A stretch of DNA of 11,400 bases from a virus (lineage: Duplodnaviria; Heunggongvirae; Uroviricota; Caudoviricetes): the IMG/VR virus record IMGVR_UViG_2654587571_000016; one strand, given 5' to 3'. Every line of letters begins with the position of its first letter. Within the stretch, counting starts at the first letter, position 1. The translations under genes and the position numbers were made by a program. The notes under the pieces are model-generated. The model did no database searches. It had not been told where the DNA came from and saw only the letters and a list, made by a program, of their open reading frames with translations. This document shows, one piece after another, positions 4,166 through 11,400 of this stretch.

Positions 4166-6298
4166 ATGAGTACCACAACACGAAAATTTAAAACCGTTAT
4201 CACCGATACAGGTGCCAAAAAATTAGCTCAGGCAGCCGCGCCAGATGGTAAGCCTGTCCGCCTGACTCATATGGCCGTGGGCGACGGTGGCGGCGCGTTG
4301 CCCACACCAGACAGTAAGCAGACCCGTCTGGTGCATGAGGTGTGGCGACACACTGTTAATCGCGTCATCCTGGACGCAACACATCAGAACCGCATTATTG
4401 CGGAGCTGGTTATTCCTCCAGAAACGGGCGGATTCTGGATCCGGGAAATTGGTGTTTTTGATGAGCACGGCGATTTAATCGCGGTGGGCAATACTGCCGA
4501 AAGTTACAAGCCAGCCGTTGCCGAAGGGTCCGGACGTGCACAAACATTTCGCACCATTCTGACCGTATCCAGCACTGCCACTGTGGCGCTTACCGTGGAT
4601 AACACCATGGTGATGGCCACAGTGGATTACGTGGATAACAAACTGAAAGAGCATGAACAGTCACGATGTCACCCGGATGCCTCGCTGACCGCAAAAGGCT
4701 TTGTTCAACTCAGTAGCGCCACTAACAGCGATTCTGAAACGCTGGCTGCAACGCCGAAAGCGGTTAAGGTCGCGTATGATCTTGCTAACGGAAAATATAC
4801 AGCGCAGGATGCCACAACAGCGCGAAAAGGCCTTGTCCAGCTTAGTAGTGCAACCAACAGTACATCTGAAACGCTGGCGGCAACATCAAATGCAGTAAAA
4901 GCTGCCTATGACAATGCTGAAAAACGTCTGCAGAAAGCTAAGAATGGTGAGGATATCTCTGATAAAGACACCTTTACGAAAAATATCGGTGCCTGCCGTG
5001 CATATAGTGCAGAGCTGAATATTGGTGGAGATAGTGAAGCATGGACAACTGCGCAGTTGATTTTTTGGCTAGAGAGTCAGGGGGCATTTAACCATCCTTA
5101 CTGGATGTGCAAAGGCTCATGGGCTTATGCAAATAATAAGGTCATTACAGATACAGGTTGCGGAAGTATTTGTCTTGCAGGTGCTGTTGTGGAAGTTATT
5201 GGCACCCGCGGCGCAATGACCATACGCATTACCACACCGAGTACATCCAGCGGTGAAGGCATCCCTAATGCTCAATTTACTTATATTAATCATGGTGATG
5301 CTTATGCTCCTGGCTGGCGAAGGGACTATAACTCCAGGAATAAGCCAACAGCATCAGAGATCGGGGCGTTACCGTCAGATGGGACAGCAGTATCGTCAGT
5401 TAATCTGGCTTCAAAAGGTCGGCTGACCGCCCTGACAGATAATATGCAGGGGGCCACAGGTCTGGAGTTATACGAGGCGTATAACAACGGATATCCAACA
5501 ACGTATGGAAATATCATTCACCTGAAAGGGATGACAGCCGTTGGCGAAGGCGAATTACTCATCGGCTGGAGTGGTATAAGCGGTGCTCATGCTCCGGCAT
5601 TTATTCGTTCACGACGGGATACGCCCGACGCAAACTGGTCGCCGTGGGCGCAGCTTTACACCTCGGCTCATCCTCCTGAAGAGTTTTATCCAGTCGGTGC
5701 ACCGATTCCGTGGCCATCAGATACCGTTCCGTCTGGTTATGCCCTGATGCAGGGGCAGACTTTTGACAAATCTGCATACCCGAAACTTGCAGTCGCTTAT
5801 CCGTCAGGCGTTATTCCTGATATGCGTGGCTGGACGATTAAGGGCAAGCCCGGCAGTGGTCGTGCCGTATTGTCTCAGGAACAGGACGGCATTAAATCGC
5901 ACACCCACAGCGCCAGCGCATCCAGTACGGATTTGGGGACGAAAACCACATCGTCGTTTGATTACGGTACTAAAACGACCAGTTCATTTGATTACGGCAC
6001 AAAAACTACGAATAGCGCTGGAAATCATTCACACAATATACCTGTTGGTCACACTGGCGCGGGGAATGGTGTATCAGCCGGTTATAACGCTGCGTTAGGT
6101 ACTGGTACCACGTCGAGCGCAGGCGAGCATGCTCACAATGTATATATCGGTGCCCATAACCACACTATCGGCATTGGTGCTCATGCCCATTCTGTCATTA
6201 TTGGTCCCCACGGACACACCATCACCGTTAACGCTACGGGTAACGAAGAAAACACCGTAAAAAACATCGCATTTAACTATATTGTGAGGCTTGCATAA
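4166..6298 (+). CDS. Tail fiber protein (P2 gpH-like N-terminus and repeat region, His-rich receptor-binding C-terminus)
   Basis: 710 aa; the N-terminus (..[45 protein letters not shown]..) and the duplicated ..[21 protein letters not shown].. block match P2 H as I recall it; C-terminus carries repeated HxH motifs (HSHN, EHAHN, AHNH, AHAHS, HGH). Confidence 0.9.
4694..4912 (+). repeat. Diverged internal direct duplication in the tail-fiber gene (two ~87-nt copies, 4694-4780 and 4826-4912)
   Basis: Protein repeats [29 protein letters not shown] / [29 protein letters not shown]; the DNA copies are clearly related but diverged. Confidence 0.7.
5936..6016 (+). repeat. 30-nt tandem repeat, about 2.7 copies, encoding [10 protein letters not shown] units within the tail-fiber gene
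   Basis: Read directly: gggacgaaaaccacatcgtcgtttgattac / ggtactaaaacgaccagttcatttgattac / ggcacaaaaactacgaatagc. Confidence 0.8.
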
Positions 6299-6876
6299 TG
6301 ACATTCAGAATGAGTGAACACTCACGGACCATAAAAATTTATAATCTACTGACCGGAACCAATGAGTTTATTGGTGAAGGTGATGCATACATTCCACCTC
6401 ATACAGGTCTGCCTGCAAACAGTACCGATATTGCCCCGCCAGATATTCCGGCTGGCTTCGTGGCCGTTTTCAACAGTGATGAGGCATCGTGGCATCTCGT
6501 TGAAGACCATCGGGGTAAAACGGTTTATGACGTGGCATCAGGGGACTCGTTATTTATTTCTGAACTCGGTCCATTACCGGAAAATGTTACCTGGTTGTCG
6601 CCGTATGGAGAGTATCAGAAGTGGAACGGCACATCCTGGGTGAAAGATGCAGAAGCAGAAAAACTGTTTCGGATAAGGGAGGCGGAAGAAACAAAAAACA
6701 GCCTGATGCAGGTAGCCAGCGAGCATATTGCGCCACTTCAGGATGCCGTAGATTTGGATATTGCAACGGAGGAAGAGGCATCGTTACTGGCTGCATGGAA
6801 GACATACCGGGTATTGTTGAATCGTGTTAATACAGCGGTAGCAGCGGATGTTGAGTGGCCAGTCGCCCCACAATAA
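6298..6876 (+). CDS. Tail fiber assembly chaperone (Tfa; P2 gpG / lambda Tfa family)
   Basis: 192 aa; C-terminal ..[39 protein letters not shown].. is the Tfa signature as I recall it; start overlaps the gpH stop (TAATG). Confidence 0.85.
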
Positions 6877-6882
6877 AGAGAA

Positions 6883-6912
6883 AAAGCCATCGATTGAAAT
6901 ATAGATGGCTTT
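6883..6912. terminator. Hairpin between convergent genes (possible bidirectional terminator, better for the minus-strand transcript)
   Basis: aaagccatc-N12-gatggcttt, 9-bp stem; on the minus strand it is followed by a TTTTTCTCT run; lies 7-8 nt from both stop codons. Confidence 0.3.
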
Positions 6913-6919
6913 ATGTACT

Positions 6920-7492
6920 CTATTTATACAATACAACACCGCTCTTTTTAGTTATATATGTGCAGTTCGATGGTATATCTTTATTTATAAAAGACATTGC
7001 ACCTATTTTTACATTATCCCCAATTTTACGTGATAATCCAATGATGCAACAATTAGCTCCGATATCAACGTTACTACCAATTTTTACTCTTGAACCAGGC
7101 ATGTCACCATCTATCTGTCCAATGGTAGTATTCTGTCGTAACACCAGATTTTCACCAGCATCAACAGCAAAATGAACAACAATTCCAGCATGATGGGGAA
7201 TTGTTAACCCTTTTCCAATATTTGCGCCCAATCCAATTTCACAACCAAATTTGTTAATTATTTTACTGTTTAACTTTTTGGCTGCTTTCTTATGTAATTT
7301 ATTACCATTAATATACATTTCGTTAGCCAACCGCCACCAGAAAAGGAAATTCCGGTTACGCTGTTTTTTCTCTCTTAAAAGCCTCCAGATATCCATACGT
7401 TTCCGCCGAATTACTTCATATTTCCAGAAGTTTTTTAAATTAGTAGAGTCCCCAAATAAAACAAAGTGAATTGCCATTAAGTAAGACAGCAC
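6920..7492 (-). CDS. Hexapeptide-repeat acetyltransferase (WcaB/CysE/WbbJ-like left-handed beta-helix O-acetyltransferase); low-GC cargo gene
   Basis: Hexapeptide signature ..GCEIGLGANIGKGLTIPHHAGIVVHFAVDAGENLVLRQNTTIG..IGSNVDIGANCCIIG..; by inspection much lower GC than the flanking tail genes. Start uncertain: GTG 7492 has GGAGA 5 nt upstream; alternatives are ATG 7477 and the longest-ORF GTG 7525. Confidence 0.75.
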   Translation of the reverse strand: MLSYLMAIHFVLFGDSTNLKNFWKYEVIRRKRMDIWRLLREKKQRNRNFLFWWRLANEMYINGNKLHKKAAKKLNSKIINKFGCEIGLGANIGKGLTIPHHAGIVVHFAVDAGENLVLRQNTTIGQIDGDMPGSRVKIGSNVDIGANCCIIGLSRKIGDNVKIGAMSFINKDIPSNCTYITKKSGVVLYK

Positions 7493-7648
7493 GATAATCT
7501 CCTTAATTATTATTTCAGACCACACATATTATAAGGTTAAGAGATTATAAAATCCTGTTGTTTGTTATTCAAAAACAATTTTCTGAGAAGGACATACAAC
7601 AGCAAGTCGCCAGTCACCTTCATCAGGAAATTGGCGACATACGTTAAA

Positions 7649-8143
7649 TCAGAGCAGCCCCTTAACTGAGCTGGTCGCGCTATTAAGGGATGATGTCACC
7701 TTATCTTTGAAGCCGGACAACATATCGCTGAACGATGAGGATTGCAGGCGCTCCCGCAAATCCTCATCACAGCGTTCAAGAGTCAGTGAAAATTCTATCT
7801 TTTTCGCCTTACCGTAGCGATCAAACTCGGAGCGGGTCGTATTCGTTTCGGTCAGGACATACATGCCGTAAATCTGCCCGACGCCATCAATCAGAGGCCA
7901 GGGCCGTCCTGTATACGCCTGCGTGGTCAGCAGAGACAGCGACACTTCGCCACCTGTAATTTCAGGATAAAGCACACCAGAAAGAACGATGCGATCATCA
8001 CCTGCACCGATATACTGCCAGCTTGCTGAACGGTTAACGCGTTCATTTTTCACATGCCGCCAGCTTTTGTTTTGCTGTAACTGCTGATGCGGCAGCGTGC
8101 GCAGCTCAAAAACAAACATGCCATAGATCATCATCATGGCCAT
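7649..8143 (-). CDS. P2 gpU-like tail protein, orphan and in inverted orientation relative to the tail operon
   Basis: 164 aa; N-terminal MMMIYGMFVFELRTLP..WRH...RVNR and ..WPLIDGVGQIYGMYVLTE..IEFSLTLER resemble the gpU family from memory; normal GC, flanked by low-GC DNA. Confidence 0.6.
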   Translation of the reverse strand: MAMMMIYGMFVFELRTLPHQQLQQNKSWRHVKNERVNRSASWQYIGAGDDRIVLSGVLYPEITGGEVSLSLLTTQAYTGRPWPLIDGVGQIYGMYVLTETNTTRSEFDRYGKAKKIEFSLTLERCDEDLRERLQSSSFSDMLSGFKDKVTSSLNSATSSVKGLL

Positions 8144-8205
8144 GACTCCTCAATCTTTATCGTAAAAGTTTCAATGCTTTTTCCTGCGGAGGTAAGGGAT
8201 ATGTA

Positions 8206-8508
8206 GTGTTCAGTTGGCTGAGAACTTCAACAATTATCAGACGTTTTATACGGACACTAATTAAGATCCCAGCTAACAGGATGTTCAATACCCTTCTGTA
8301 TTTTTTCTTCACAAAGGCCGAAAATACATATTCATCCCCTGAGTGGTGGGACAGGCTCAGTGATAAACAGCGAGAGAATATCGGCAACATGATTATGTCA
8401 GGGGTTGAATTTTTTGGCAGACCTACATCACAGGTTGATCATTCCGTTGATTATAACGCCGCTGCACTTGAAGAGATAACATGCAGCAACAACGAAATTT
8501 GCAGCTGA
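8206..8508 (+). CDS. Hypothetical small protein (75-100 aa), low GC, unknown function
   Basis: ORF with a GTG start at 8206 (GGAGG about 14 nt upstream) or ATG at 8281; no recognisable family; weak translation signals, so it may not be expressed. Confidence 0.3.
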   Translation: MFSWLRTSTIIRRFIRTLIKIPANRMFNTLLYFFFTKAENTYSSPEWWDRLSDKQRENIGNMIMSGVEFFGRPTSQVDHSVDYNAAALEEITCSNNEICS

Positions 8509-8738
8509 ATGTTTACATGCTGTTAGAAAAAGCGGGCTGAACAATCATTTCGGGATTGTAACAGATAAGATGGCACTGCCCGCTTGCTTCCCGATATGCA
8601 CCTCAGCCAATAAACTTATGTAAGCAACCGATTTCCATTTATGCGGAGGTTATCAAAGTTGTTGGAGTTGCGAACTTCCGCTCTTCGCACAAAGCGTACC
8701 GCTAGGTTTGATTGTATTCTGGCTGCGCAAACTGTCAG

Positions 8739-8767
8739 TTGGAGTCTGAGCTATTACAACTTAGAAT
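8739..8767 (+). promoter_or_regulatory. Candidate sigma70 promoter for the ogr-like gene
   Basis: TTGGAG (8739-8744), 17-nt spacer, TAGAAT (8762-8767); about 30 nt upstream of ATG 8798. Confidence 0.25.
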
Positions 8768-8797
8768 AGCGGCAGCACCACGTTAAGGGAGGTCGCT

Positions 8798-9058
8798 ATG
8801 TTCCGTTGTCCGCTTTGTGGCGCATCTGCCCGAATCCGCACCAGTCGTCCGGAAAACGATTCAAACACTGTGCGGCAAAAGTATTACCAGTGTAACAACC
8901 TGGAATGCGGCGTATGCTTCTCAACACTGGAAGCTTTCCATAAATTCACATCAAAACACGCCTCCGGCGTTCACTCTTCGGAAGGTATCCCGTGGCATGA
9001 GCTGCCAGCTTCACACAGGGGAAACAATCAGATGAGTTTGCCTTTACCTCAGAATTAA
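8798..9058 (+). CDS. ogr: Ogr/Delta-family zinc-finger late transcription activator (P2 Ogr-like, with C-terminal extension)
   Basis: MFRCPLCGASARIRTSR...YYQCNNLEC: the CxxC...CxxxxC zinc-finger layout and MF.CPLC start of Ogr/Delta; strong Shine-Dalgarno (AAGGGAGG); 86 aa against about 72 aa for P2 Ogr. Confidence 0.8.
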   Translation: MFRCPLCGASARIRTSRPENDSNTVRQKYYQCNNLECGVCFSTLEAFHKFTSKHASGVHSSEGIPWHELPASHRGNNQMSLPLPQN

Positions 9059-9067
9059 CAGGCAGAA

Positions 9068-9096
9068 TTGCCGGAGTAACAAAAAAACGATAGATT
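9068..9096 (+). promoter_or_regulatory. Candidate promoter for the hok mRNA (long structured leader expected)
   Basis: TTGCCG (9068-9073), 17-nt spacer, TAGATT (9091-9096), about 150 nt upstream of the hok ATG, in line with the long leaders of hok-family mRNAs. Confidence 0.2.
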
Positions 9097-9248
9097 ACCC
9101 GCGGGTGCCTTTCGGCTGATGGTCGGAGGAATACCCGAAGGCCGGATGTGGAAAGGCCCCGGAAAACATTTCTGTTTAACCGAGGCCCTAACATATCTAC
9201 CTTAAGCAAGTGATAGGTTAGCGCCTCTCCAACAAAGGAGCAAGCGCT

Positions 9249-9389
9249 ATGTCGCAAAAATCGCTTACAGCCATCACGTTCTGCGTGACGGTAATCCTCA
9301 TCATCTGGATGCTACACGGTTCGCTGTGTGAAATACGGATGAGCTTCTGGGGAGCGGAGTTTGCGGCGTTCTTACAGTGTAAGCAGTAA
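9249..9389 (+). CDS. hok: Hok/Gef-family type I toxin (46 aa membrane peptide)
   Basis: MSQKSLTAITFCVTVILIIWMLHGSLCEIRMSFWGAEFAAFLQCKQ: hydrophobic N-terminal helix followed by the conserved SLCEIR...AAF(L/M) motif shared with HokA/HokC as I recall them; AAAGGAG Shine-Dalgarno 8 nt upstream; missed by the 60-aa ORF track. Confidence 0.8.
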   Translation: MSQKSLTAITFCVTVILIIWMLHGSLCEIRMSFWGAEFAAFLQCKQ

Positions 9390-9398
9390 GGAAACCGC

Positions 9399-9420
9399 GA
9401 CGGGGGAGCAATCCCCCGTC
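9399..9420 (+). other. GC-rich perfect hairpin in the hok 3' UTR (possible mRNA stability or fold-back element)
   Basis: gacggggga-gcaa-tcccccgtc: 9-bp perfect stem, 4-nt loop, no U-run after it. Confidence 0.4.
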
Positions 9421-9475
9421 AATCGGTTGCTAAGGTTGGCTGAAGTGGCACCCTATCTCACAGACATGAACAACA

Positions 9476-9509
9476 AACCCGCAGCGTAAGAACTGCGGGT
9501 TTTCTTTTT
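9476..9509 (+). terminator. Intrinsic terminator of the hok transcript (possibly bidirectional)
   Basis: cccgcag-cgtaagaa-ctgcggg followed by TTTTCTTTTT. Confidence 0.6.
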
Positions 9510-9577
9510 GGAACAATCACTAGCTAGTGTACCGTTAACGGCACATAATGCTCGCACAACAAACCTGTTAAAAGAGA

Positions 9578-9859
9578 TTACTCAGCATTCTCCTGCTTCC
9601 ATTGCCGGATCATTTCATCGGTAACATCACCCTCATAACATACCACGTCATACCCTCCATTACGGCTATATGCACTGCGTCCACCACATCTACTACCATT
9701 CCTTGCATGATTATAAGGACACGCACAATTGCCTGGATAAGATTCAATGGATTCTTTAATTATTTCTTTTTTGATCTGAGCATCAGACTTTCCTGTTGCT
9801 GCATATCCACTAAAAGATACTAAACAAAGGCAGATTGCCATTAATAAACCACATCGCAT
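9578..9859 (-). CDS. Small secreted cysteine-rich protein of unknown function (about 93 aa, predicted signal peptide)
   Basis: Taking ATG 9859 gives MRCGLLMAICLCLVSFSGYA|ATG..., a signal-peptide-like N-terminus; mature part holds 5 Cys (..PGNCACPYNHARNGSRCGGRSAYSRNGGYDVVCYEGD..). The longest ORF runs to 9973 (TTG/ATG) but that extension is non-hydrophobic and lacks a Shine-Dalgarno. Confidence 0.5.
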   Translation of the reverse strand: MRCGLLMAICLCLVSFSGYAATGKSDAQIKKEIIKESIESYPGNCACPYNHARNGSRCGGRSAYSRNGGYDVVCYEGDVTDEMIRQWKQENAE

Positions 9860-10140
9860 ACCGATACACTCTATTACTAACCAATCATAGCCCACATCAT
9901 AAAATCGAGATGAGGAGTACAATACCTTTAACAAGAAGGTGTCATAACGATAATATGTCGTGCAATTCATCAAAAAAAAGATCTATATCAAAGAGATAGA
10001 ACTCTTATCAGTGCTTCAGACATCGGCATTCGAGGCAGCAGAAAAACAGTAAATCTGACGAATTTGCCTTTTCCCAAGATGTTGTCAGATTAAAAAGATA
10101 GATTAGCGCAGGTACCTGTTGGTGGATTGCAGGAGGAAAA

Positions 10141-10245
10141 ATGAAGTCGAGTGAAAAAATCCCAGAAAAATTTTTGTTTAACAGAGGTCCTGGTTCACTA
10201 TGCGAAATACGGAGGAGCTGCAGAAGAATTCTGCTTCATCCTTAG
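10141..10245 (+). pseudogene. Decayed hok-like paralog (34-codon ORF retaining the SLCEIR motif but lacking the transmembrane segment)
   Basis: MKSSEKIPEKFLFNRGPGSLCEIRRSCRRILLHP; DNA homology to the intact hok both in the coding region (ggttcactatgcgaaatacgga vs ggttcgctgtgtgaaatacgga) and upstream (gatagattagcgca vs gataggttagcgcc); AGGAGG Shine-Dalgarno retained. Confidence 0.4.
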
Positions 10246-10329
10246 AGTTTAAACAGCACGTGCACTACCATTGTTTCTGCATATCGCCACACCATCGCCA
10301 CTCTACCGCCATTGCACAAAATACAAATA

Positions 10330-10355
10330 CGAAAAAACCACCCGAAGGTGGTTTC
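10330..10355 (-). terminator. Intrinsic terminator of the glyW-cysT-leuZ tRNA operon
   Basis: On the minus strand: aaaccacc-ttcg-ggtggttt hairpin followed by a TTTTTT run, about 40 nt after the leuZ 3' end. Confidence 0.6.
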
Positions 10356-10397
10356 ACGACACTGCTTATTGCTTTGATTTTATTCTTATCTTTCCCA

Positions 10398-10484
10398 TGG
10401 TACCCGGAGCGGGACTTGAACCCGCACAGCGCGAACGCCGAGGGATTTTAAATCCCTTGTGTCTACCGATTCCACCATCCGGGC
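10398..10484 (-). tRNA. leuZ: tRNA-Leu (anticodon UAA)
   Basis: The reverse complement matches E. coli tRNA-Leu(UAA) as I recall it (GCCCGGATGGTGGAATCGGTAGACACAAGGGATTTAAAATCCC...GGGTACCA), 87 nt including CCA. Confidence 0.95.
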
Positions 10485-10496
10485 TCGGGAAGAAAG

Positions 10497-10570
10497 TGGA
10501 GGCGCGTTCCGGAGTCGAACCGGACTAGACGGATTTGCAATCCGCTACATAACCGCTTTGTTAACGCGCC
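10497..10570 (-). tRNA. cysT: tRNA-Cys (anticodon GCA)
   Basis: The reverse complement matches E. coli tRNA-Cys as I recall it (GGCGCGTTAACAAAGCGGTTATGTAGCGGATTGCAAATCCG...CTCCA), 74 nt. Confidence 0.95.
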
Positions 10571-10624
10571 AAATTCTTCAGGCCTTTCAGCCAGACATCC
10601 GCTTGACGCCGATGTCTTTTAAAC

Positions 10625-10700
<76 letters not shown>

Positions 10701-10773
10701 ATTCATCAAGCAATCAGTTAATCACTTGATTTTATTATCGTCTGGCAATCAGTGCCGCCGTTCGATGCGTTGC

Positions 10774-10801
10774 ATTCTACTTACCTGGCGCGATGAGTCA
10801 A
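10774..10801 (-). promoter_or_regulatory. Candidate sigma70 promoter of the tRNA operon
   Basis: On the minus strand: TTGACT (10796-10801), 16-nt spacer, TAGAAT (10774-10779), with an AT-rich UP-like stretch further upstream; about 70 nt upstream of the glyW 5' end. Confidence 0.35.
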
Positions 10802-10851
10802 CGATATTTTTCACCACTTTTGATCGTTTGCTGAAAATTACGCCGAAACGA

Positions 10852-11400
10852 TCACTGATCAAGCAAATCTGCACGCGCAGCGCTCAAATATTGCAACATT
10901 GACCACAGAGTCAGTACCGCAGCCACAAAGAAAAGTGCAATACCGGCGTACTCAACCCAAATGTTCGGACGCCACAGCAGCCATGCCAACGCCACCATCT
11001 GGGCAGTGGTTTTCACTTTCCCAATCCAGGAGACGGCCACGCTACTGCGTTTACCCAACTCCGCCATCCATTCGCGTAGCGCAGAAATAATAATTTCACG
11101 GGCGATCATCGTTGCCGCCGGTAATGTCACCCACCAGCTGTGATAATGCTCGGTTACCAGCACCATGGCGATAGCCACGAGAACTTTATCTGCCACAGGG
11201 TCAAGGAAAGCACCAAACCGGGTACTCTGGTTCCAGCGGCGTGCCAGAAAACCATCGAACCAGTCAGTCACCGCCGCGACGCAGAAAATGAGCGCGGCGG
11301 CAAACGGCGACCAGGTGACAGGCAGATAAAAGACCAATACAAAGAATGGGATAAGGATGACACGGAACAGTGTAAGCAACGTAGGGATATTAAATTGCAT
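10852..11400 (-). CDS. pgsA: CDP-diacylglycerol--glycerol-3-phosphate 3-phosphatidyltransferase (phosphatidylglycerophosphate synthase)
   Basis: 182-aa [33 protein letters not shown]... with the CDP-alcohol phosphotransferase motif (DGFLAR..G..LDPVADK); the start codon is the last three bases of the window. Confidence 0.95.

Follow-up and report, generated by a model that had tools for sequence, protein, structure and literature searches.

What occupies the roughly 440-bp "empty" stretch at the right end of an E. coli prophage, and, if it holds a toxin gene of the hok type, how would that toxin be made when the mok leader frame of plasmid R1 is missing? The window, by which we mean the whole 11,400-nucleotide stretch of DNA that was analyzed, is E. 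coli chromosome throughout and covers the right end of a P2-like (P88/Xuanwuvirus-type) prophage. Tail genes of the P2 type lie upstream of an ORF (8798–9058) whose profile match identifies it as an Ogr/Delta zinc-finger protein, and the right end of the window carries genes for tRNA-Gly, tRNA-Cys, and tRNA-Leu (10401–10700, minus strand) followed by pgsA, which corresponds to the glyW-cysT-leuZ region of annotated complete genomes. Compared with complete genomes, the prophage in the window is missing 7.5 kb of tail and late genes; it is a defective P2-like element. A hok locus accounts for the empty stretch. With ogr on one side and the leuZ-cysT-glyW tRNA genes on the other, it occupies a typical cargo site, the one that separates ogr from the attachment end of the prophage. 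Our main reading, to which we give a probability of about 0.88, is that this locus is a hok/sok-type type I toxin–antitoxin cargo of a P2-like E. coli prophage, with a Hok toxin that is not coupled to mok and a likely role in stabilization of the prophage remnant and/or phage exclusion.

The toxin gene is a single short reading frame:

9249–9389, plus strand: hok coding sequence, 46 codons and a stop codon; matches the Pfam family and is annotated as WP_000078920.1.

The 46-aa product, MSQKSLTAITFCVTVILIIWMLHGSLCEIRMSFWGAEFAAFLQCKQ, matched Pfam PF01848 (HOK_GEF) over residues 7–44 with 30.1 bits (E = 3.7e-7), which exceeds the curated gathering cut-off of 22 bits for this family. Escalera-Maurer et al., whose preprint catalogue sorts 32,532 hok loci into 61 clusters and describes them as enriched in prophages, find M1, C16, T18, L30, C31, E32, and E41 conserved in more than 80% of 1264 Hok peptides (bioRxiv 10.1101/2025.08.07.668861). 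All seven are present here, as M1, C12, T14, L26, C27, E28, and E37, those after M1 standing at a constant offset of 4 relative to the Hok logo numbering. Size (46 aa), an N-terminal hydrophobic helix, and the conserved residues are the features by which Hok/Gef membership is judged, and the peptide has each of them. The reading frame is intact, at 46–47 codons, in every one of 21 sequences, with peptide identity falling as low as 48–61%, and the strong Shine–Dalgarno (SD) sequence AAGGAG (9235–9240), with its 8-nt spacing, is retained in homologues.

Table S2 of the catalogue lists two representatives of Hok cluster 72, designated 72_1621 and 72_1589 (bioRxiv 10.1101/2025.08.07.668861). These proteins (WP_000078920.1 / WP_000078916.1) are likewise found in prophages; 72_1621 differs from the peptide in the window by a single residue, V15A, and 72_1589 is identical to a copy beside lom in Stx2 phages. 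Judged by its sequence, the peptide belongs to cluster 72, and the locus is a member of that cluster from which nothing of substance sets it apart. In the catalogue's toxicity assays, which expressed the coding sequence alone from a foreign promoter and SD, 42 of 45 constructs were toxic, the three non-toxic ones belong to other clusters, and both cluster 72 representatives were assayed with neither among those three (bioRxiv 10.1101/2025.08.07.668861). Because 72_1621 lies outside the non-toxic set, a peptide nearly identical to the one encoded here is taken to be toxic when overexpressed.

DNA of this kind is common. Many complete E. coli genomes (O103, O111, O26, and others) carry the segment 9040–9560 with 100% identity, and RefSeq/PGAP labels the gene in them as WP_000078920.1, "Hok/Gef family protein"; phage P88, of the genus Xuanwuvirus in the family Peduoviridae, matches the segment with 98% identity. 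Homologous DNA is present in 1755 of 5426 complete E. coli genomes at up to nine copies per genome, and some plasmids and about 200 phage records carry it as well; the copies recur at prophage ends and are spread, often in multiple copies, over different phage types. The 68 protein relatives all come from Escherichia, Shigella, Salmonella, or Klebsiella, and all are named Hok/Gef.

Around the reading frame lie the elements expected of a hok transcription unit:

9068–9096, plus strand: putative hok promoter, with a −35 box TTGCCG (9068–9073), a 17-nt spacer, and a −10 box TAGATT (9091–9096).
9103 to about 9508 (to 9510), plus strand: predicted full-length hok mRNA of about 406 nt, with ends taken from RF01794 and the terminator.
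9475–9510, plus strand: intrinsic terminator, a stem (9475–9502) followed by a T run, which reads as a terminator on the minus strand too.

Transcription would start at about 9103, giving a leader of 146 nt from +1 to the hok AUG. This position agrees with that of K-12 hokC, in which TATAAT lies 6 nt before GGGUGC, where the Rfam model has its first base, and the −10 pattern TA.A.T is kept in nearly all homologues. The Rfam family RF01794, although named "sok", models the hok leader in sense orientation; its hits in K-12 hokC, hokB, and an R1-type plasmid lie on the strand that encodes hok, from the 5′ GGGUGC onward, and it aligned over its full length to 9103–9259 of the window (plus strand) with model position 1 at 9103 (46.7 bits, E = 2.8e-9). 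This score does not reach the gathering score of 59, and relatives score 42–50 bits. The leader is best regarded as a divergent member of the family, and its sub-threshold score leaves the RNA unannotated by pipelines.

Folding of the 408-nt segment 9103–9510 gave a minimum free energy of −175 kcal/mol and a z-score of −7.2 relative to shuffled sequences. The fold contains the following elements in addition to the terminator:

9103–9117, plus strand: tac-like 5′ element, GGGUGCCUUUCGGCU, which pairs with either 9438–9453 or 9148–9160.
9148–9160, plus strand: local, ucb-like partner of tac, GUGGAAAGGCCCC, from the RNAalifold consensus.
9155–9187, plus strand: predicted Sok-target hairpin, GGCCCCGG...CCGAGGCC, which folds and aligns to the hairpin of RF01794.
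9199–9214, plus strand: 5′ strand of a second long-range helix, pairing with 9422–9436 and covering part of the target of the Sok 5′ tail.
9219–9249, plus strand: hok SD hairpin, sequestering the SD (9235–9240) and the A of the AUG.
9353–9367, plus strand: dcb-like box in the 3′ part of the hok coding region, pairing with codons 2–6 (9251–9265) in the full-length fold.
9399–9420, plus strand: GC-rich 3′ hairpin.
9422–9436, plus strand: 3′ half of the second long-range helix, paired with 9199–9214 in the full-length fold.
9438–9453, plus strand: fbi-like 3′ element, GGCUGAAGUGGCACCC, partner of 9103–9117 in the full-length fold.

An alignment of 18 loci (11 from E. coli and phages at 74–100% identity, six from Salmonella, and one from K. 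oxytoca) was used to ask whether these pairings are maintained. Across the whole fold, 85.2% of alignment cells were paired compared with 38–45% when the partners were slid, 36 pairs were changed on both sides, and no shuffle attained the observed covariation score. The tac/fbi helix comprises 15 pairs, with 85.7% of cells paired and four pairs changed on both sides among the 18 homologues; the alternative local tac stem (9103–9116/9148–9160) comprises 12 pairs, with about 92% of cells paired (91.9–92.8%) and four compensatory pairs. Columns 61 and 62 at the 5′ end covary with the fbi partner and with the local partner alike, and UUUC/GAAA in E. coli, for example, becomes UUCG/CGAA in Salmonella. 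This pattern is the "coupled covariation" reportedly put forward by Gultyaev, Franch and Gerdes in 1997 as a signature of the hok folding pathway. The local partner of tac overlaps the 5′ arm of the hairpin at 9155–9187, and the two conformations are therefore mutually exclusive, as in R1. The hok folding pathway is summarized elsewhere (PMC9841398).

The remaining helices are conserved as well. The second long-range helix (helix 6; 9199–9214/9422–9436) has 14 pairs, six of them changed on both sides in alignment A3. The SD hairpin (helix 7) is 93.9% paired, with a stability of −14.2 kcal/mol here and −10.5 to −15.0 kcal/mol across the 18 homologues, a range that also takes in the SD hairpins of the R1-type plasmid and hokC (−13.8 and −15.0 kcal/mol). 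Helix 8, between codons 2–6 and the dcb-like box (9251–9265/9353–9367), has 13 pairs and is 93.6% paired, its DNA being invariant across genera. The GC-rich hairpin (helix 15) has nine pairs, is 98.8% paired, and carries five pairs changed on both sides; by analogy with the truncated R1 hok mRNA, which ends in a stem-loop (PMC9841398), it is probably the 3′-end protector of the processed, active mRNA. Four compensatory pairs are found in the terminator stem (helix 16). The hairpin at 9155–9187 holds a GAGG (9182–9185) and mirrors the terminator hairpin of Sok; its stem ends are conserved among homologues and its loop is variable. In canonical loci, the equivalent hairpin sequesters the SD of mok.

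These results bear on the most skeptical reading of the locus, namely that a chance small ORF happens to carry an SLCEIR...AAFL motif and that there is no toxin gene. The frame is indeed short and its Pfam E-value (3.7e-7) is modest, but the Pfam score lies above the curated cut-off, the entire mRNA architecture is conserved and covaries, the leader matches RF01794, the gene is annotated in thousands of records, and 72_1621, a one-residue variant of the peptide, falls outside the published non-toxic set. Together these points already refute this reading, and we regard it as scarcely credible. The earlier note, written from the letters of the window, had proposed a 46-aa hok-family ORF with a toxin signature, and a frame of that description is what we find at 9249–9389 (plus strand), with its 30.1-bit Pfam match and seven of seven conserved residues. 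It had also described a hok-mRNA architecture within 9068–9510; the 146-nt leader, tac/fbi pairing, 3′ hairpin at 9399–9420, and terminator (9475–9502 plus the T run) bear this description out, and the limits that it gave coincide with the putative −35 box (9068–9073) and the end of the terminator. Folding recovered the tac/fbi-type long-range pairing that it had envisaged, as a covarying helix of 9103–9117 with 9438–9453 in the fold with z = −7.2, and its concern that the motif might be coincidental is answered by this z-score, by retention of the fold in 18 homologues from three genera, and by the annotation of 100%-identical DNA. That the ORF track missed the gene can be due only to a length threshold; NCBI's pipeline does call it.

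A hok/sok system also requires an antisense RNA. The candidate elements lie on the opposite strand of the leader:

about 9207 to about 9146, minus strand: predicted Sok antisense RNA, about 60 nt, mapped from K-12 sokC through RF01794.
9243–9215, minus strand: putative Sok promoter, with a −35 box TTGCTC (9243–9238), 17 nt, and a −10 box TAACCT (9220–9215).

We infer the placement of Sok from its homology to the annotated sokC and sokB of K-12 and from the conservation of its promoter. The ends of sokC fall at model positions of about 106 and about 44, which translate to 9207 and 9146 in the window. An RNA with these ends would consist of a single-stranded 5′ tail of about 18 nt, a hairpin, GGGCCUCGG...CCGGGGCC, and then UUUCCACAU (the UUUCC tail), and its predicted fold has a free energy of −22.9 kcal/mol (z = −3.4). 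The −10 box reads TAACCT in 16 of the 18 homologues and TATCCT in two Salmonella copies, and the −35 box reads TTGCTC or TTTACT at the same position. The Sok promoter of the R1 type, which occupies the equivalent position, consists of TTGCGC, 17 nt, and TATCCT, and the two Salmonella copies thus share its −10 box. Among homologues, the leader varies most in the Sok/target region, which is what cognate specificity would demand where one genome holds several copies. A generic promoter scan of 8950–9650 called neither the hok nor the Sok promoter; both were placed by homology, and both are weak by consensus, the hok promoter going uncalled because it matches 8 of 12 consensus positions.

The element that sets this subfamily apart is the one it lacks. 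In R1, mok must be translated as far as the hok SD, and toxicity is lost when stop codons interrupt mok ahead of hok (PMC9841398). The mok frames of hokC, hokB, and the R1-type plasmid open with an AUG 7–8 nt after GAGG and run into hok, whereas cluster 72 has no such AUG; likewise, mokW is annotated for hokW of phage 933W, whereas the subfamily here has no mok. Counts of mok starts and hok frames used a set of 21 sequences; a wider contig scan for loci gave five, of which three were usable. None of the 21 subfamily sequences has ATG, GTG, or TTG within 0–13 nt after GAGG. In the window, no open frame enters the hok SD, since each of the three closes somewhere from 9203 to 9221. Homologues show no conserved upstream ORF: start, frame, and length vary, and half of the sequences have no upstream ORF of any kind that reaches the hok SD. 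The leader does contain one frame that might be mistaken for mok:

9119–9205, plus strand: leader ORF of 28 codons with an internal ATG at 9146; not a mok equivalent.

This frame was rejected as mok, as it stops 30 nt before the hok SD. Its internal ATG occurs without exception in the 11 sequences from E. coli and phages and is absent from the Salmonella and Klebsiella copies, and the frame that opens at its equivalent ends anywhere from 1 to 78 codons later in homologues; conservation of this ATG within E. coli is explained by its location in the tac-partner strand. Two further candidates were also rejected, a three-codon GUG mini-ORF (9210–9221), which is not conserved and falls short of the hok SD, and non-canonical AUA/AUC codons at the canonical mok site, which are not conserved.

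Either translation is activated differently in this subfamily or the subfamily is translationally silent. If silent, the locus would be a transcribed but translationally dead relic that has lost mok, never makes Hok in its native setting, and survives only as a passenger of prophages or a supplier of Sok-like RNA. Such a fate would fit the absence of a canonical mok AUG in 21 of 21 sequences and of any conserved upstream ORF, an SD hairpin that at −10.5 to −15 kcal/mol is as stable as those of R1 and hokC, the loss of R1 toxicity caused by mok stop codons upstream of hok (PMC9841398), and the view that several chromosomal hok loci of K-12 are inactive. It sits poorly, however, with a 46–47-codon frame that none of the 21 sequences has lost even though peptide identities fall to 48–61%, with the presence of all conserved Hok residues, with retention of the AAGGAG SD at 8-nt spacing, with a family that is abundant and often multi-copy in different phage types, and above all with compensatory changes in the RNA switch that only make sense if regulated expression matters. 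We consider a dead relic decidedly unlikely, and favor a functional locus on three grounds: none of the 21 sequences has a broken frame, the strong SD persists, and the RNA switch covaries.

How a functional locus of this kind would work is harder to say. One proposal, which we hold tentatively and at rather less than even odds, is that cluster 72 loci are functional mok-less hok/sok systems in which translation of Hok needs no coupling to a leader ORF, ribosomes loading directly or from a standby site, for instance, on the refolded, processed mRNA, and in which Sok acts purely through RNase III decay or by blocking standby binding or refolding. As part of this proposal, Sok, whose predicted binding site is separated from the downstream hok SD by more than 25 nt, would resemble istR-1/tisB more than R1 Sok. 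Translation of Hok in its native context would have to start from an mRNA that is mok-less and has an SD hairpin as stable as those of R1 and hokC, and both points count against the main reading, as do the weak promoters and the sub-threshold RF01794 score.

With a functional hok/sok locus as the preferred reading, the R1 paradigm (PMC9841398) and homology to sokC and sokB suggest the following course of events. The full-length mRNA would be locked by tac/fbi pairing in a stable but inert form, with the hok SD and AUG buried in the hairpin at 9219–9249 and in the long-range helix 9251–9265/9353–9367. Slow trimming from the 3′ end to the hairpin at 9399–9420 would remove fbi and the 9422–9436 strand, after which the 5′ end could refold and expose 9186–9207. 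Sok, constitutively made but unstable, would pair at 9186–9207 (as an RNA of about 60 nt, 9207–9146, minus strand) and direct the mRNA to RNase III decay. Should the supply of Sok stop, through loss of the element or shut-off of transcription, Hok would be made and the inner membrane depolarized. Because no mok leader ORF is conserved in cluster 72, initiation of Hok synthesis would be expected to occur directly, or with standby assistance, at its own strong SD and not by mok coupling. For 3′ processing and RNase III decay, the fold supplies structural prerequisites only, in the form of a stable, covarying hairpin (9399–9420) upstream of fbi. When the truncated RNA was folded alone, the hok SD hairpin stayed closed, and this fold therefore yields no activation mechanism.

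The earlier note had remarked that neither a mok frame nor a Sok RNA was obvious. It was right on both counts: no mok frame exists, given the closure of three frames between 9203 and 9221 and the lack of a start in 21 of 21 relatives, and a putative Sok could be placed through sokC/sokB homology and promoter conservation. Its description of the locus as intact applies to the hok frame, both putative promoters, and the RNA switch, but cannot be asserted for translational activation because that step in R1 needs mok (PMC9841398).

What such a locus does for its carrier is likely to be stabilization of the prophage remnant and/or phage exclusion of the abortive-infection type. The roles put forward in the earlier note, stabilizing the island and contributing to persistence, are candidates too, as is addiction to the element. 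The same molecular system could instead assist lysis and phage release, as hokW-sokW does in the Stx2 prophage Sp5, where SOS induction lowers Sok and Hok helps the cell to lyse and the phage to be released (Takada et al., 2021; PMC8621323). That work demonstrates the role for a prophage-borne hok/sok (PMC8621323), and loci like the one here are carried by active phages such as P88. Against this, hokW is a different, 51-aa locus that bears mok, and a prophage without 7.5 kb of tail and late genes cannot have phage release as its selected function in this strain. We judge a lysis-helper role to be improbable, if less so than translational death.

The possibility that the locus is itself the hokW-sokW of Stx phages was rejected. 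The hokW of 933W lies at a locus of its own and encodes 51 aa, with mokW in frame; hokW-mokW-sokW of 933W/Sp5 (PMC8621323) is gef-like, and with its in-frame mokW extension occupies 58460–58734 of 933W. Stx2 phages carry, next to lom, a further hok gene that is an 83%-identical homologue of the locus described here. The name "MokW-like host killing" given to the P88 copy in RefSeq phage records is only a transferred one.

Comparison with hok/mok/sok (parB) of plasmid R1 places the locus within the established design. Shared features include a Hok/Gef peptide with the C..T...LCE...E pattern; an mRNA of about 400 nt with tac/fbi pairing of its 5′ and 3′ ends and an alternative local tac stem; a hairpin that bears GAGG, a sequestered hok SD, and a 3′ protective hairpin (PMC9841398); and, as predicted here, a Sok promoter that overlaps the region of the hok SD. 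By contrast, R1 has mok, encodes a toxin of 52 aa rather than 46 aa, and is a plasmid rather than a prophage, and the leader here is about 27 nt shorter. The K-12 loci hokC(gef)/mokC/sokC and hokB/mokB/sokB share the leader family (RF01794 scores of 118 and 110 bits) but both have mok, and no DNA-level similarity of the locus to hokC or hokB was detected.

Being already annotated in RefSeq and catalogued, this ordinary element is no new discovery. It contributes little as a finding, since the Hok cluster has been sampled and the enrichment of hok genes in prophages is known. Its practical value lies in annotation, as the predicted Sok RNA and the mRNA elements are unannotated by current pipelines. 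The sole feature worth follow-up is the mok-less architecture. The Hok catalogue contains no analysis of mok, Sok, or mRNA structure (bioRxiv 10.1101/2025.08.07.668861). In these loci a complete tac/fbi switch and an equally stable SD hairpin coexist with the lack of a conserved mok, so nature offers here a way to ask whether hok regulation can do without mok coupling. On the downstream side, a minus-strand gene (9578–9859) converges on hok and shares the terminator region at 9475–9510.

The Sok-target loops of homologous hok loci, located at the equivalents of window 9160-9210 and inferred to be recognized by the antisense RNA Sok, fell into a few discrete classes (e.g., GGAAAACAUUUCUGUUUAACC vs GAGUCAACUUUAACGUUAACCC) in two alignments, A1 and A3, the latter of 18 homologues. 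In these alignments, the loop classes were scrambled across the Hok peptide clades: S19-651 and 10671, for instance, had one peptide clade in common but different Sok-target loops. These patterns hint at recombination that swaps Sok recognition modules. In Salmonella (L022 2501-3131; L023 2501-3135), two complete cluster-72 hok loci were arranged in tandem, ~490 bp apart, and the unlike Sok-target regions of the paired loci suggest that a locus was duplicated and that antitoxin specificity then diverged. Another Salmonella copy, L017, had neither the conserved promoter nor the GGGUGCC sequence of tac, the 5'-end element of hok mRNA, upstream of hok, as its alignment is lost ahead of the GAAGGCC block. 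This copy is probably 5'-truncated and inactive. A 100% identical Hok protein was also encoded on contigs L024 and L025, whose labels are Planococcaceae MAG UBA3378 and Vagococcus sp. WN89Y; most likely these assemblies were contaminated with, or mis-binned from, Enterobacteriaceae.

Despite its name ('sok antitoxin'), Rfam model RF01794 represents the hok mRNA leader in its sense orientation, and its matches in K-12 lie on the hok strand, opposite to the annotated sokC and sokB RNAs. The strand that this model reports is thus not to be taken as that of the Sok gene.

Beside hok lies one convergent gene.

Gene neighboring hok
Window 9578-9859, minus strand: convergent gene, with a bidirectional terminator common to it and hok

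RefSeq names its ~93-residue product a hypothetical protein, and no Pfam family scored above threshold for this product, which may carry a signal peptide and be cysteine-rich.

At 8167/8168, the window is missing 7,513 bp that complete genomes such as NZ_CP027577 have.

Segments around the junction, with L001 as the intact relative
Window 6553-8167: left flank, equivalent to L001 1-1615
Window 8168-11400: right flank, equivalent to L001 9129-12361
L001 8330-9469: full YecA-family gene
Window 8206-8508, plus strand: remainder of the YecA-family gene, 3' end only

The absent stretch contains genes for the tape measure, gpE, tail tube, sheath, and gpD, together with the 5' part of the YecA-family gene, which in intact relatives encodes a 379-residue 'YecA family protein' and lies, as cargo, in the P2-like prophage between gpD and ogr. 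As no complete E. coli genome among 5,426 has this junction, the source of the window carries either the remnant of a defective prophage or a join made during assembly. Left of the junction, window 6641-6839 (plus strand) gave a full-length, 192-bit match to the Rfam 'sRNA family' IS009. Since this match is contained wholly within ORF 6298-6876, which we take to be a prophage tail-fibre assembly gene, it probably represents just conserved phage coding sequence.
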